Notes under the pieces: model-generated | What the model was told of the DNA's origin: nothing | The model's database searches: none | What the model saw: only the letters and a program-made list of their open reading frames with translations | Position numbers and translations under genes: made by a program | IMG/VR virus record: IMGVR_UViG_2671180676_000003 | DNA length: 45,001 nucleotides | Source: a virus | Taxonomy: Duplodnaviria; Heunggongvirae; Uroviricota; Caudoviricetes | Strand: one strand, 5' to 3' | Part shown: piece by piece, positions 35,652 through 39,237 of the stretch | Position numbering within the stretch: the first letter of the stretch is position 1 | Layout: each line of letters opens with the position of its first letter

Positions 35652-36473
35652 ATGACTATCCTTGAAAATCCTGATGCGAATGTTGAATCTGTTTATAGTC
35701 TTCATCCAACCACGTTGTTTCATTTTACAAAAAACGAAGATGCTTTCTATAGCATATTGGCTGAGAAATATTTTAAACCATTTCTTGCTCGCGAGGAAAT
35801 AAGAGGAGTCGGGGGACGTAGGAGGTTTGCAGTACCAATGGTATCGTTTTGTGACATAAAACTATCACAAATCAGAGATCATAGCGGAAAATATGGAGAA
35901 TTCGGTCTTGGGCTAACTAAGTCTTGGGCGGAAAAGAAAGGTCTACACCCAGTTCTATATATGAATAAGAGTAGTGAAATATTTTCTAAATACAATGCCA
36001 GAATTCGACTTATTAAAAATAAGTTGGTGCCGCTTTGGAAGGCTAGAGGAAATTTAGATACCAAAAACAGAATAGAGTTTGAGAAATTGAAAGCAGAATA
36101 CTCTGATCTATATAATTTACTGCGTTATATGAAAAATTACAGAGGCAAGCTAGAGCGAAAAGATAATAAAACAATAGAGAATTATATATATGCAGACGAG
36201 AAAGAGTGGCGTTATGTGCCAGCTCCTTTTATTGGTGATTTATGGCCTAGTCTGAGTTTGGAGCGTGTTATCACTTCTGATGACAAAGCAAAAATTAGCT
36301 CAGAATTTTCAAAGTTTGGCATTGATTTTGAGTTCAATGATATAAAATATATACTTATACCTAAAGAACAACATATCCAAAAGCTAATTAACTTTCTCTC
36401 AGGTTTAGATGGATTTGAATCTTCAATTATTAGCAAAATTCTGACCATGGATAAAGTAAAGCAAGATTTTTAA
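35652..36473 (+). CDS. Hypothetical protein, gene A of AT-rich two-gene cassette (candidate defence/abortive-infection component)
   Basis: 273 aa from ATG 35652 (AAGGTG Shine-Dalgarno; the track start GTG 35607 is less likely). About 33-35% GC by hand count against roughly 45-50% for backbone genes. Conserved-looking N-terminal block LHPTTLFHFTK...AVPMVSFCD...GEFGLG. Confidence 0.6.
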   Translation: MTILENPDANVESVYSLHPTTLFHFTKNEDAFYSILAEKYFKPFLAREEIRGVGGRRRFAVPMVSFCDIKLSQIRDHSGKYGEFGLGLTKSWAEKKGLHPVLYMNKSSEIFSKYNARIRLIKNKLVPLWKARGNLDTKNRIEFEKLKAEYSDLYNLLRYMKNYRGKLERKDNKTIENYIYADEKEWRYVPAPFIGDLWPSLSLERVITSDDKAKISSEFSKFGIDFEFNDIKYILIPKEQHIQKLINFLSGLDGFESSIISKILTMDKVKQDF

Positions 36474-36499
36474 TTTTTGGTTTAACGGGAGCCTAATTA

Positions 36500-37711
36500 G
36501 TGTCAATATTTTTAAGCGAAAAGGAAATGCAAAATTGGATAATTGACAAATTATCTGATCAAGATGGATTATATAATTCAATCATCAATATTGATAAATT
36601 AAACGAATTTAATCCGAAAAGACCCGAAGAGAAAAAAATTAAGGAGAGTTATCAGTTTTGTTTAAAGAACATAACATTGTTACATTTAATGACAGATGAT
36701 GAGAATATCTCAGCAACAAAATCTGAGATATTAAGACCTGATGTTGTTGCTTATTCAACAGAGAATGAATCCTTAGTTCTTATTGAGTTAAAAAACTTTT
36801 CAACACCAACAAGGGAAGCTGGAACTGAGTTGGTGGCATATGCTGCGGAACTAAAAAGTTACTTGTCATACTTGTCTGATGGAGATATTACCAATGTACT
36901 TATATCACCTGACTGGCCACCCCTGGTTAGACACTTTATTTTTAATATGATCGTGTGGCAGAAGAAAAACTTTCTATGTTTAGAACCTTGCTATGATTTA
37001 CAAGGTAACGTATCACTTACTCCTTTAGATATTAATAAATTAGTTATTGCGGAAGAAGCACTCAAGTTCTCATTTCGTCATCTTGGTGGGTTTCATATAT
37101 GTTTGTATGATGATGAAATGTATAATAAACCGACTTCAACTTCTCGTTTACATTCGAAATTGAATGTTATTAAAGCCAGCATGGCAAAAATGTCCTCAGA
37201 CGGTGAAAAGACTAATAGCCATGGGTTTGCTATTTTATGTAGAAATTTGAATGAGAGAACTTTAGCGCCATATACGATTACTCTAGTTAATGTTTCTGCG
37301 TTTTCTTCCATAGAGCGATACTTTCATTCGCCACAAATATCCAATGCTTCTCAACTCCCTAGAATAGGACAAAAAATTTATGACATTTACACTCATTACC
37401 AACCATCAGGTTTTGGGGCATCAATGTCGAAAATTTACAATTCTGGGAAGGCATATTTAGAAAAAATTAATTGCAAGCCGCGGATCGAGGTTATAGACAC
37501 CTGGGATGTATTGCAAGCACATACACATGCGCCTTATATGGAAATGGTTCATATTGAAACGTGGGGAGTTTTTAAAGAAAAATTGATTGAAGGTCTAAAT
37601 GAATGTTATGAGGATGAATATTACACACCTGATTTTGACGATGTAGATTTTTGCATGGTGTGTATTGAATCCTTAATTGACCAGAATTATGAATTTATAA
37701 AACTTTTTTGA
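36500..37711 (+). CDS. Hypothetical protein with N-terminal PD-(D/E)xK nuclease motif, gene B of AT-rich two-gene cassette
   Basis: 403 aa; GTG start 26 nt after the gene A stop, with GGGAG Shine-Dalgarno; motif ILRPDVVAY...ESLVLIELKNF fits PD...(D/E)xK; same AT-rich composition as gene A. Confidence 0.6.
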   Translation: MSIFLSEKEMQNWIIDKLSDQDGLYNSIINIDKLNEFNPKRPEEKKIKESYQFCLKNITLLHLMTDDENISATKSEILRPDVVAYSTENESLVLIELKNFSTPTREAGTELVAYAAELKSYLSYLSDGDITNVLISPDWPPLVRHFIFNMIVWQKKNFLCLEPCYDLQGNVSLTPLDINKLVIAEEALKFSFRHLGGFHICLYDDEMYNKPTSTSRLHSKLNVIKASMAKMSSDGEKTNSHGFAILCRNLNERTLAPYTITLVNVSAFSSIERYFHSPQISNASQLPRIGQKIYDIYTHYQPSGFGASMSKIYNSGKAYLEKINCKPRIEVIDTWDVLQAHTHAPYMEMVHIETWGVFKEKLIEGLNECYEDEYYTPDFDDVDFCMVCIESLIDQNYEFIKLF

Positions 37712-37713
37712 AG

Positions 37714-37745
37714 AAAAGGGGCCGAAGCCCCTTTGAATTTTGCGC
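37714..37745 (+). terminator. Intrinsic terminator closing the two-gene cassette
   Basis: AAAGGGGC-CGAA-GCCCCTTT hairpin followed by GAATTTT immediately after the gene B stop. Confidence 0.55.
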
Positions 37746-37888
37746 TGAAAAAAGTGTTGCTAGGATGTTAGCAAGCTATGGTTAAGAACGTCTGCCGTAA
37801 TTGTCTATCACAGCGTTGAGCGGTCTGGTTTATGTTAGCGGAGTCTTAATCGAGTTGATTAAAAGGCCAAACCGCTCAACGCTGTGTC

Positions 37889-37976
37889 TGGCGGAGAGTA
37901 ATGGAATCGAACCATCATCGCTTGCGCAATGGGACGGTTTTCAAGACCGCTTGAGCACCATGCTCCCTACTCTCCG
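37889..37976 (-). tRNA. tRNA-Ser (anticodon UGA), long variable arm
   Basis: Hand-folded: anticodon arm GCGGT-CTTGAAA-ACCGT, long variable arm, T-arm GATGG-TTCGATT-CCATT, encoded CCA. The D-arm fit is imperfect, so boundaries are approximate. Confidence 0.55.
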
Positions 37977-38199
37977 GCCGTTGTGGTGGCCGGTACTGAA
38001 TCTCCGGCATACGGTGCAGCCAATTAGGACTACGGACGATCACCGCTCGCGAAAGGGAAGATTTGCGGCCGCATTTCCCTAACATCCAAGAAAGCTATCG
38101 CATCAGTCTGCGAATCCACCACAACGGTAAGATCACTACCTTTCGACCAGTCATTGTGCACATGAACGACGATTAACCGTAATGATCTTATCGTTGTAT

Positions 38200-38275
38200 T
38201 GGTGCCGGTTAGCGGACTCGAACCGCTGACATCCTGCTTACAAGGCAGGCGCTCTACCAACTGAGCTAAACCGGC
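38200..38275 (-). tRNA. tRNA-Thr (anticodon UGU)
   Basis: Perfect cloverleaf by hand: acceptor GCCGGTT/AACCGGC, D-arm GCTC-AGTTGGTA-GAGC, anticodon arm CCTGC-CTTGTAA-GCAGG, T-arm AGCGG-TTCGAGT-CCGCT, encoded CCA. Confidence 0.9.
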
Positions 38276-38279
38276 AATT

Positions 38280-38366
38280 TGGTGGGGAGTGATGGAGTCG
38301 AACCACCCGAGTCGCAATGACAGTAGATTTACAGTCTACACCGCTACCTCTACGGACTAACTCCCC
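38280..38366 (-). tRNA. tRNA-Tyr (anticodon GUA), long variable arm
   Basis: Acceptor GGGGAGT/ACTCCCC, anticodon arm GTAGA-CTGTAAA-TCTAC, long variable arm, T-loop TTCGACT, encoded CCA. Confidence 0.8.
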
Positions 38367-38371
38367 TAAAT

Positions 38372-38446
38372 TGGCGATGGTGGGTGGATTCGAACCACCG
38401 ACCAGTTGGTTAACAGCCAACTGCTCTACCGCTGAGCTACACCATC
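38372..38446 (-). tRNA. tRNA-Asn (anticodon GUU)
   Basis: Acceptor GATGGTG/CACCATC, D-arm GCTC-AGCGGTA-GAGC, anticodon arm GTTGG-CTGTTAA-CCAAC, T-arm GGTGG-TTCGAAT-CCACC, encoded CCA. Confidence 0.9.
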
Positions 38447-39237
38447 AATTCAGCACTGCCAGTATTTATTACTCAACAGTGCCAATCGCGGCGGTGTTAG
38501 TTTCTGCCAGGAAACGCACCGCTACTTGCACTTTTCGTTAGTGCCAGACGTTTTCGACTTCGCTCAATAGAAGGCAAAATCTTTAAGTAGATGATGTTTT
38601 TTGAGGACAGCACCTACTTTGTAATTTATACAATGTGATGTATGGAATCATTTGTTGTGAAAACAGGCACCAATGGCAACAGTGGTTAAACCTACACAAC
38701 AATCCTGTCTTCACAACGTTGAGGCCACTACTCCGATTGAATGTTTGCCCAACATGTTACATATCAACGCTCGCCTGTATCTCTGTGAATAGAACCTTAG
38801 AATTGATAAAAATGTAATGGCCTCAACGTTGTGTGCTGGCTAACCATACCAGCCGGGCTACGTCGCCGCTTTTTAACCCAGTATAAACGACATAATTGAA
38901 CAAAATGACGTAACAGGATGGGCGGTCAGAGGCTAAGAATCCGGGAGTCATATGGAGTTGAAAATATACCAACCGCCCATTCTGTTACTTCATCGAATAG
39001 GGCATAGTGGTTTGGCTGTCTATGCCCTATCCTGCGTTCTGCAATCACACTCGCTCAGTGTGTCCCATTTCGGTAACGAGGCTGGAAACTGACCTCGCTG
39101 GTGTTTGGCTTATTAGGCTACTGCCAGATAGACTTCTTCGTTTGCACTTGTATTTAAGTTCAAACAGTCGCGTCTCAACGAAAACAAAGTCATCTTATAC
39201 ATAAAAGATAAGTAAGTAAATACTTATCACCATGTTT

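Follow-up and report, generated by a model that had tools for sequence, protein, structure and literature searches.

The stretch of DNA analysed here (the window: 45,001 nucleotides (nt), IMG/VR record IMGVR_UViG_2671180676_000003) belongs to a virus of the class Caudoviricetes. On the minus strand, its segment from 39226 to 37710 appears to be an operon of non-coding RNAs that belongs to an SSU5-like phage-plasmid. The operon includes an RNA of about 350 nt which, judging by its sequence, is a derivative of transfer-messenger RNA (tmRNA) reduced to the mRNA-like part. Across the tRNA genes and the adjoining region without convincing open reading frames (ORFs), the window is 99.9% identical to the E. 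coli plasmid pUTAK-6-1. Phages CMS-2020a and Cyrano are close relatives, and the group is that of the SSU5 / pHCM2 / pMT1 phage-plasmids. In the direction of transcription the operon would comprise a promoter overlapped by a palindrome, the ~350-nt structured RNA, hairpin modules, tRNA-Asn, tRNA-Tyr and tRNA-Thr, a hairpin with a tRNA-derived module, tRNA-Ser, an inverted repeat (IR-A) and a terminator (Table 1). The right-hand neighbours, a DNA ligase gene (41371-40049) and small ORFs (40052-39238), all lie on the minus strand like the tRNAs, and an integrase gene is located about 3 kb from the region.

Table 1. Features of the non-coding operon, listed in the direction of transcription (positions in the window; PK, pseudoknot)
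Feature	Position	Strand	Basis or remark
Promoter-like site: -35 TTTACT (39220-39215), 17-nt spacer, -10 TAAGAT (39197-39192)	39192..39226	minus	read from sequence
5' arm GUUUUCGUUGAGACGCGACUGUUUG	39161..39185	minus	complementary to host tmRNA nt 81-105, around resume codon G90
Start-less tag frame GCA AAC GAA GAA GTC TAT CTG GCA GTA GCC TAA TAA (ANEEVYLAVA and two stops)	39110..39145	minus	homologue alignment
Tag-closing helix CUGG / CCAG	39127-39124 / 39101-39098	minus	spans 39098-39127; stops between the strands
PK-a stem CGAGG / CCUCG	39097-39093 / 39081-39077	minus	
PK-a loop UUCCA with UGGGA	39087-39083 with 39067-39063	minus	
PK-b stem CACAC / GUGUG	39062-39058 / 39050-39046	minus	
3' domain: hairpin 39032-38995, 19-27-bp hairpin 38994-38904, 3' hairpin 38853-38835 (GCUGGU/GCCAGC, 7-nt loop)	38835..39041	minus	RNAalifold
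IR-B hairpin CACAACGUUGAGGCCAUUAC / GUAGUGGCCUCAACGUUGUG	38712-38731 / 38814-38833	minus	20-bp stem, 95%, encloses 82 nt
Hairpin after IR-B, GUUGUGAAGACAGG / CCUGUUUUCACAAC	38654-38667 / 38704-38717	minus	GUUGUG in common with the IR-B 3' arm
tRNA-Asn(gtt)	38372-38446	minus	ARAGORN and Rfam
tRNA-Tyr(gta)	38280-38366	minus	ARAGORN and Rfam
tRNA-Thr(tgt)	38200-38275	minus	ARAGORN and Rfam
IR-C hairpin (CCAA)UACAACGAUAAGAUCAUUAC / GUAGUGAUCUUACCGUUGUG(GUGG)	38116-38139 / 38179-38202	minus	inverted repeat search, relatives
Module X, tRNA-derived structured element closed by CCGUUGUGGUGG / CCACCACAACGG	37978..38127	minus	comparison with relatives
tRNA-Ser(tga)	37889-37975	minus	ARAGORN; annotated tRNA-Ser in Cyrano and D6
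IR-A hairpin CACAGCGUUGAGCGGUUUGG / CCAGACCGCUCAACGCUGUG	37809-37828 / 37867-37886	minus	20-nt arms, 95% complementary, 38-nt loop
Probable bidirectional intrinsic terminator GGGGC-CGAA-GCCCC	37710..37731 (GC hairpin 37718-37731)	minus	T-runs on both strands; by eye only

A first-pass annotation made from the letters of the window alone had listed four minus-strand tRNA genes (Ser, Thr, Tyr, Asn) beside about 800 bp without convincing ORFs. Both observations were correct. ARAGORN, which it had proposed as a check for missed genes, finds exactly these four tRNAs in the 45-kb window, all on the minus strand, and no others. Rfam places Thr, Tyr and Asn above the gathering score, while the Ser gene stays just under the cut-off of the tRNA-Sec model (46.6 against 47 bits) because of its long variable arm. 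The same Ser gene carries the remark 'AA not called by tRNAscan-SE' in the D6 record. In the 790-bp stretch 38447-39237 all ORFs are of 65 aa or less, the two small ORFs tested have no Pfam match, and the alignments of relatives contain many indels that are not multiples of three and break the small frames, so the small ORFs were rejected as genes.

This ORF-free stretch is about 80% identical in Salmonella SSU5, Yersinia pestis pMT1 and Klebsiella/Enterobacter/Citrobacter phage-plasmids (773 plasmid records). Unrelated phages, namely Felixounavirus, HK620, Klebsiella siphoviruses and the Aeromonas phage pIS4-A (317 phage records), have unannotated DNA that matches about 100 nt of the stretch (39091-39197). 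Among the SSU5-like elements, conservation across all lineages extends from the RNA 5' end to about 38835. The small RNA that the first-pass annotation had suggested for this place can be recognised as a structured RNA with compensatory changes. In RefSeq an ORF drawn over it is called 'C-type natriuretic protein' or hypothetical protein (SSU5, NC_018843.1 41773-42287, and several plasmids); this ORF is almost certainly a spurious call. No Rfam family other than tRNA reaches its gathering score here, and GOLLD, ROOL, Y RNA and the like are unmatched even at E values up to 10.

The first 145 nt of the ~350-nt RNA (about 39185 to 38835) resemble the mRNA-like domain of tmRNA, a module that the first-pass annotation had missed. 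The start-less tag frame (Table 1) has GCAAACGA and TAATAA in common with the tag of E. coli ssrA (GCA AAC GAC GAA AAC TAC GCT TTA GCA GCT TAA TAA). When the Rfam tmRNA model is aligned to the wV8 homologue, the resume region receives the top posterior probability, and this spot is also where four unrelated phage groups have weak matches to the tmRNA or permuted-tmRNA models. With its threshold relaxed, ARAGORN picks up the resume consensus and the tag in FelixO1, HK620, wV8 and Carvaje, not in the window. Upstream of the resume codon an A at -4 is found in all groups and a U at -5 in most; the window has C at -5 (..UACAAGU followed by GCA). The corresponding nucleotides of E. coli tmRNA, U85 and A86, set the frame.

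A tag-constrained scan of viral contigs yielded at least 120 loci with 95 distinct cores (42 clusters at 85% identity), and the frame is intact in all but one of its 127 matches. A second scan was anchored on the downstream structure only and left the tag unconstrained. It gave 79 matches, one of which (L258) is not this element. The AN-type frame of 10 codons with its stop is intact in 77 of the 79, or 77 of the 78 genuine ones, and the 78th (L251) keeps the frame and starts with AKDD. Synonymous changes are found (AAC/AAT, GTA/GTG, TTC/TTT, GAA/GAG, GCC/GCT, TAT/TAC), and the peptides follow the conservative pattern AN[D/E][E/N/D/T/Q][M/V/Q/T/A/S][Y/F]LAVA, with ...LAAA and AKDD... as rare variants. 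As the frame is kept without any tag constraint and the changes are synonymous or conservative, the tag shows coding-type selection, evolving as a translated sequence does. An alternative frame over the tag (AUG CAA ACG ... UGG CAG UAG) was rejected, its middle being non-conservative and its 'start' being CUG or GUG in SSU5-like elements.

Together the helix that closes the tag region and the two pseudoknot modules take up 39042..39127. The helix is invariant and 100% paired, and for this reason shows no covariation. The two pseudoknots behind it were evaluated on 27 non-SSU5 homologues; SSU5-like variants were counted separately and folded with RNAalifold. In the 27 homologues 98% of the cells are paired, the pseudoknot helices reaching 100%, and seven pairs are changed on both sides (37 cells). 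The covariation score is reached by none of 500 shuffles, and slid partners pair at 28-43%. The PK-a stem occurs as UGAGG/CCUCA, CAAGG/CCUUG, CAGGG/CCCUG and CGAGG/CCUCG, its loop and the downstream strand as CCGA:UCGG, CCAG:CUGG, CCAA:UUGG and CUCCA:UGGAG, and the PK-b stem as CGCAC/GUGUG, CGCAU/AUGUG, CGUAC/GUAUG, CGCAG/CUGUG and CAGAC/GUCUG. In the position that pseudoknot 1 (PK1) of tmRNA occupies upstream of the tag, only a hairpin is seen, in most groups CUUUG/CAAAG, nearly invariant and hence without covariation. For 10 SSU5-like lineages RNAalifold predicts 87 pairs, of which 14 show compensatory changes, and the fold of the window RNA (-121 kcal/mol, z = -4.28) is matched by none of 100 shuffles.

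Of 5426 complete E. coli genomes, 147 contain the tmRNA-like element, with no annotation in the records listed; PGAP gives no annotation over the element in E. coli genomes. The element always points the same way as the tRNA genes near by or the late transcript. The wV8 copy lies within a tRNA array and the Carvaje copy about 200 nt upstream of tRNA-Ser; HK620 and E. coli prophages carry it between Q and the holin gene, in the PR' late leader. More precisely, the module of HK620 (L004, 1440-1700) and of an E. coli prophage (L128, 3001-3203) is found in the PR' leader between qut and the tQ terminator/holin gene, the slot that holds tRNAs and stx in Stx phages. As the lambdoid module is within the PR' late leader, its expression can be expected to be under Q antitermination.

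No tRNA-like domain belonging to this RNA could be found. At default settings ARAGORN reports no tmRNA in the window, SSU5, HK620, wV8, Carvaje or FelixO1, and at relaxed settings the 'tRNA domain' it offers is pieced together from halves of neighbouring genuine tRNAs. In the window the T-loop motif occurs only in the four tRNAs and in one chance match inside a 771-aa ORF, and an acceptor piece elsewhere in the window was looked for and not found. The Rfam scores of 10-29 bits do not reach the gathering scores of 47 (RF00023, RF04321) and 84 (RF01850). Upstream of the element in the window there are a 96-aa ORF and the promoter, and the RNA begins with GUUUUCG, leaving no acceptor piece for a two-piece layout. 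In the L010-type the upstream tRNA-like module ends with ...CUCUUUCCA, and the bases that follow are not complementary to the module end. A nested tmRNA-like topology formed by the direct repeats AGUGCUCUUUCC (HK620-type) was discarded, the local closing stems being longer than the alternative pairing.

Genome announcements of FelixO1-like phages (Moogle, Felix O1, Mushroom) report an ARAGORN 'tmRNA' or 'ssrA' in passing (PMC4319497, PMC4392139); the Felix O1 genome paper makes no mention of tmRNA. The statements on Moogle and Felix O1 are probably explained by ARAGORN borrowing tRNA halves. About 100 nt downstream of the element wV8 has an odd tRNA-like gene (L005, 1322-1400, minus strand; Rfam tRNA 31.7 bits), missed by ARAGORN, with C1-G72, G2-C71, G3.U70, A73, an encoded CCA, a UCU anticodon-like loop and no clear D-arm. 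It was considered as the missing tRNA-like domain and rejected, since the same slot holds a normal tRNA-Arg(TCT) in a sister phage (L028) and nothing comparable is seen in other groups.

The 5' arm of the RNA is complementary to the host tmRNA. In the window, RNAduplex pairs arm nt 1-25 with host nt 81-105 in two 10-bp blocks at a free energy (dG) of -26.3. The arms of the HK620, L010 and Carvaje types pair along host nt 54-105 with dG of -39.6 to -41.0; the shuffle means are -24 to -29, and not one of 60 shuffles does as well. For 17 of 20 representative arms the best site on the 363-nt host tmRNA is at host nt 54/68/81-106, compared with about 5% for shuffled arms. When pairing is scored in a simple way, each of the 61 distinct arms fits host nt 66-108 better than its own tag region, and 57 of the 61 beat all 30 shuffles (median z 5.0). 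The arms differ among phage groups, and pairing to the fixed host sequence is kept by wobble-compatible changes (GCGACUGUUU, GCGAUUAUUUU and GCGUCUAUUUU against host AAAAAAUAGUCGC); the phages' own tags differ from one another at codons 3-5, and the arm shows no changes to match. The arm covers host tmRNA from the linker after PK1 via the resume codon to codon 5-6. From the paired part to the phage resume codon there are 9-10 nt in the HK620-type and about 15 nt in the window, the host distance from PK1 to the resume codon being 11 nt.

Host nt 41-130 are identical in E. coli K-12, two Salmonella strains and Klebsiella pneumoniae, except that Salmonella has one more A in the A-run. A different target in Salmonella (tag ANDETYALAA) was considered and proved wrong for the two Salmonella sequences retrieved. 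A scan of genome contigs with the pattern AAACACCAGNNNGGTN{1,4}TTCC was too loose for 596 Gb, and the rows it returned were chance matches.

The RNA is predicted to start near 39185, at GUUUUCG. This heptamer (rarely AUUUUCG or UUUUUCG) is near-invariant at or near the RNA start in every variant. In all SSU5-like lineages and in FelixO1-like phages the G of GTTTTCG is preceded, at a distance of exactly 7 nt, by a putative -10 hexamer (TAAGAT, TATGAT or TATAGT). The FelixO1-like phages have TTGACA-17-TATAGT, with a perfect -35 in wV8. In the remaining groups GUUUUCG comes immediately after a tRNA-like module (L010-type) or 3 nt on (HK620-type), so that processing would give the same or nearly the same 5' end. 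The -35 of the window is overlapped by a perfect 14-bp palindrome TAAGTATTTACTTA (TAAGTA-TT-TACTTA, 39226-39213), conserved in all SSU5-like lineages, which looks like an operator for a regulator.

Long inverted repeats delimit many parts of the operon. The first-pass annotation had described two of them. The sequence of IR-A was given exactly and its position (37839-37888) about 30 nt off, whereas IR-B proved real with slightly different arms (38708-38723 and 38818-38833 had been given; see Table 1 for those found). The palindrome it had noticed in the loop of IR-A is there (TTAATC/GATTAA), and the relatedness of the two repeats holds beyond chance. The core CACARCGTTGAG has four exact occurrences, all in the IR-A and IR-B arms and nowhere else in the window, and with up to one mismatch five are observed where 0.44 are expected, a number reached by none of 100 shuffles. 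Further long inverted repeats had been missed: IR-C, the hairpin after IR-B, the closing arms of module X (37978-37989/38116-38127) and 38905-38926/38972-38993. On the minus-strand RNA a family of stems starts with CACA(A/G)CG and ends with CG(U/C)UGUG. It has at least five members of about 20 bp, 38833-38712, 38717-38654, 38202-38116, 38127-37978 and 37886-37809; the module X closing helix (38127-37978) has reversed polarity compared with the others, GUUGUGGUG...CACCACAAC. The hairpin 38994-38904 (19-27 bp) lacks the motif.

These stems are conserved among the SSU5-like lineages, with compensatory changes in the distal halves. Their non-Watson-Crick positions are G.U on the minus strand in 139 cases and A.C in 30, which argues for selection on the minus-strand RNA and not on duplex DNA. 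In IR-B, for which 21 distinct variants give a median stem of 19 bp, 384 positions are Watson-Crick, 17 G.U and 2 A.C, and the distal part covaries (GGCC/GGCC, GACC/GGUC). IR-A has a stem of 20-22 bp that begins 2 nt past tRNA-Ser; it is kept after this gene in the window type, Cyrano and pJN2-26, and its 10 distinct variants have 19 G.U and 9 A.C. The hairpin 38654..38717 is kept in SSU5 and pJN2-26 with compensatory changes. The earlier proposal that the repeats act as RNA structure or processing elements agrees with this conservation, these changes and the G.U bias. Its alternatives fared worse: a terminator role has no U-tract after any of the repeats to rely on, the likely terminator being the separate GC hairpin at 37718-37731, and the strand asymmetry of the non-Watson-Crick positions weighs against a purely DNA-level element such as remnants of an attachment site. 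The E. coli chromosomal matches examined sit in the prophage Q-S intergenic region and not at an attB. An integron attC was also rejected, as the order in IR-A (GTTGAGC ... GCTCAAC) is the reverse of that in attC (inverse core RYYYAAC at the 5' side, core GTTRRRY at the 3' side).

Median stem lengths are 19-27 bp, and RNase III substrates are of the same size range. On the ground of this match in length we propose the stems as cleavage sites; they would close or delimit modules of the transcript, and their cleavage, together with tRNA processing, would free individual RNAs. They would also be points of module gain and loss: homology among relatives breaks at stems, and tRNA content differs between close relatives. 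Among SSU5-like elements the complements are Asn only (21), Asn-Tyr-Thr-Ser (13), Asn-Ser (10), none (7) and Asn-Thr-Ser (4), and related tRNA clusters are found in Cyrano, SSU5, pJN2-26, D6 and P7. A Klebsiella-type lineage (L105) is without the IR-B 5' arm and the 82-nt interior, with breakpoints at two copies of the 8-bp palindrome CAACGTTG, which suggests these palindromic cores as deletion or recombination points.

The 224-nt spacer between tRNA-Thr and tRNA-Ser consists of IR-C and module X, both missed in the first-pass annotation. IR-C is homologous to the closing stem CACAAC-AGGUAAGAGCA / UGCUCUUUCC-GUUGUG of the tRNA-like modules of HK620, Carvaje, L010 and D6; Cyrano lacks it, and its Ser and Thr genes are 8 nt apart. 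Module X has a 5' hairpin UCGCA/UGCGA, a variable middle and a 3' hairpin GCCGG-AGAUUCAGUA-CCGGC beside the closing helix. A search for it gave 44 distinct candidate sequences, counted over both strands, of which the conserved family is a subset. Module X is regarded as tRNA-derived because in some phages (L048, L104, L014) the same frame holds a T-arm-bearing tRNA-like sequence with the acceptor stem GUUGUGG/CCACAAC. Its place in the window, Carvaje and D6 is immediately upstream of tRNA-Ser, and in HK620 and Carvaje modules of the IR-C/module X type come after the tmRNA-like one. SSU5-like and P1-like phage-plasmids (D6, L281 1200-1880; also P7) have tRNA-Ser, module X and CAACGTTGAG-type hairpins in common at about 93% identity, which indicates that tRNA-island modules are exchanged between unrelated plasmid-prophage families.

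A translated tag without a tRNA-like domain needs a carrier, and the host tmRNA, reached via the arm, is the only candidate that the data support. We speculate that the arm docks the phage RNA on the host Ala-tmRNA/SmpB. Docking would mask the host resume codon and present the phage resume codon some 9-20 nt past the duplex, depending on the lineage. The template-half tmRNA would in this way be grafted on the host's charged tmRNA, and ribosomes rescued by it would add a phage tag ending in LAVA, not the host tag ending in ALAA. ClpX recognises the terminal LAA of the host tag, so the LAVA end should alter the fate of tagged proteins. In a minimal version host tagging would simply be blocked. 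This tag swap, taken separately, is rather unlikely. That the RNA is directed at host tmRNA at all, swap and blocking combined, appears about evenly balanced, while the whole explanation, with operon layout, stems, tmRNA derivative and docking mechanism, is the best we can offer and is put forward tentatively, at somewhat under an even chance.

Several points weigh against it. The mechanism (docking, tag swap, blocking) is inferred throughout, and RNase III cleavage of the stems is a proposal. We know of no precedent for a tag template given in trans to a one-piece tmRNA. In the window itself the arm duplex is only marginally better than chance, 7 of 60 shuffles being as good in energy. Cofolding that allows for self-structure leaves a net gain of -4 to -16 kcal/mol, which overlaps arm-shuffled controls, and RNAalifold finds intramolecular partners of the arm with weak covariation (5' CGUUG/3' CAACG, GCGAC/GUCGU and UGUUUG with its own CAAACG). 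The host target extends into PK1, and this part is bound by proteins in vivo. The window promoter matches the consensus at 8 of 12 positions, below the threshold of the scanning tool, and in many non-SSU5 phages the element has no promoter of its own and is flanked by tRNA-like modules, so the RNA ends must there come from processing. No transcriptome or interactome data on this RNA were found in the literature, and neither were a tmRNA without a tRNA-like domain, antisense control of tmRNA or a phage RNA antisense to tmRNA.

The RNA could also be a pure anti-tmRNA or decoy, pairing with host tmRNA or titrating S1, the SmpB tail or RNase R, with its tag never translated. The arm complementarity speaks for this as well, covariation backs the imitation of the mRNA-like domain and pseudoknots, and no unprecedented template switch is needed. 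We nevertheless consider a pure decoy improbable, as it leaves unexplained why the tag evolves as if translated, staying intact in 77 of the 79 unconstrained matches, and why the frame determinants (-4 A in all groups, -5 U in most) are retained. Coding selection on the tag would also fit an autonomous phage tmRNA, of one or two pieces, whose acceptor piece is too divergent to be recognised or comes from module X or the mini tRNA-like modules of HK620, L010 and D6. Two-piece tmRNAs do occur in nature, T-arm-bearing tRNA-like modules often adjoin the element, and the downstream gene of wV8 has G3:U70, A73 and an encoded CCA. The 'tmRNA' of the FelixO1-like genome announcements (PMC4319497, PMC4392139) could be read in the same way. 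However, ARAGORN gives nothing by default and borrows its relaxed 'tRNA domain' from the neighbouring real tRNAs, what occupies the tRNA slot downstream varies (L028 has a normal tRNA-Arg there), and outside the four tRNAs the window has no T-loop bar the chance match. The acceptor-like stems of the modules are, by eye, without G3:U70, the SSU5-like and FelixO1-like RNA would start from its own promoter at GUUUUCG with no 5' acceptor strand, and the Rfam scores stay far below the gathering values for tmRNA, permuted and beta-tmRNA models. An autonomous tmRNA is quite improbable.

A different explanation places the function at the level of DNA: the repeats would be recombination or attachment sites, or protein-binding palindromes, that exchange tRNA cassettes, and the ORF-free stretch would be a decaying, functionless ssrA fragment. 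The variable tRNA content with homology breaking at stems speaks for it, as do the CAACGTTG breakpoints of L105, the presence of the same modules at 93% identity in unrelated P1-group phage-plasmids and the integrase gene near by. The excess of G.U over A.C on the minus strand is an RNA signature, though, and compensatory changes preserve pairing. Decay is also hard to reconcile with a tmRNA-like module found in at least 42 sequence clusters from unrelated phages with covarying pseudoknots and an intact tag. We regard this explanation as highly improbable, although a role of the stems as recombination hot spots could co-exist with a role in RNA.

tmRNA is universal in bacteria and, to our knowledge, known only as a single RNA, or as a permuted pair from one gene, joining tRNA-like and mRNA-like domains. 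The phage RNA resembles one-piece tmRNA (SsrA, RF00023) in its resume region (...AUAAAU/GCA AAC GA..., close to the tmRNA consensus), in the start-less 10-codon AN(D/E)xx(Y/F)... tag, in the stops placed between helix strands, in the pseudoknots after the tag and in size (about 350 nt for the SSU5-like element, 363 nt for E. coli tmRNA). It differs in having no acceptor stem, T-arm or CCA end and no recognisable PK1, an antisense arm being in its place. Its tag ends in LAVA, not ALAA, its score is far under the Rfam gathering value, and it is encoded by phages and phage-plasmids beside tRNA genes, with no SmpB seen in the window. Two-piece permuted tmRNAs (alpha- and some beta-proteobacteria, cyanobacteria; RF04321, RF01849-RF01851) likewise have the tag template on a separate chain held by base pairing, and the weak Rfam matches at the phage element include the permuted model. 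In its working the phage RNA would correspond to their coding piece. However, the known genes have a CCA-ending acceptor piece just upstream and a coding piece that opens with the 5' acceptor strand, neither of which is present in the phage element, and the proposed partner here is the host's complete tmRNA, paired at its mRNA-like region.

The tRNA cluster of phage T4 includes stable non-tRNA RNAs (species 1 and 2, or rnaC and rnaD). Like the RNA described here they are structured RNAs in a co-oriented phage tRNA array, presumably freed by tRNA processing; we know of no tmRNA-like tag or antisense arm in them. Anti-sRNAs (antagonists of small RNAs) of enterohaemorrhagic E. coli prophages, AgvB and AsxR, pair with host non-coding RNAs. 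The phage RNA, which is in the PR' leader in lambdoid phages, would similarly pair with a host non-coding RNA via a 5' seed, but its target would be tmRNA, and it is far larger, with a translatable tag module and pseudoknots. StxS is a base-pairing RNA derived from a PR' leader (PMC7547250).

Hundreds of phages and prophages, as well as phage-plasmids that include the Yersinia pestis pMT1 and Salmonella SSU5 lineages, share this conserved template-only relative of tmRNA. If it acts on host tmRNA, viruses would have in it a new means of countering, or exploiting, ribosome rescue and ClpXP-directed proteolysis. In the case of a tag swap, a one-piece tmRNA would be trans-complemented by a foreign coding piece, a new way for a virus to reprogram host protein quality control. 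It would also offer tmRNA research a natural system with template and tRNA functions apart. The graft mechanism, if true, would be categorically new. An unannotated or mis-annotated conserved region receives an explanation, the ARAGORN 'tmRNA' of FelixO1-like phages refers to an element without a tRNA-like domain, and the tRNA islands of enterobacterial phages can be viewed as assembled from a common kit made up of tRNAs, modules derived from tRNA and RNAs closed by stems.

After the last hairpin and ahead of tRNA-Asn (38447-38653, minus strand), a block GUCUGGCACUAACG(A/U)AAAGUGCAAGU is conserved; it has a hairpin GCACU/AGUGC and is common to most SSU5-like lineages. At the other end of the operon the GC hairpin 37718-37731, which was absent from the output of the scanning tool, is likely, from its sequence, to mark the end of the non-coding transcript. 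An AbiGi-family abortive infection antitoxin gene (annotated in pUTAK-6-1) and a 403-aa ORF (36500-37711), together covering 35652-37711 on the plus strand, converge on this end and appear to use the same bidirectional terminator as the tRNA operon. The 403-aa ORF has a weak HSDR_N_2 match only and may be the toxin partner.

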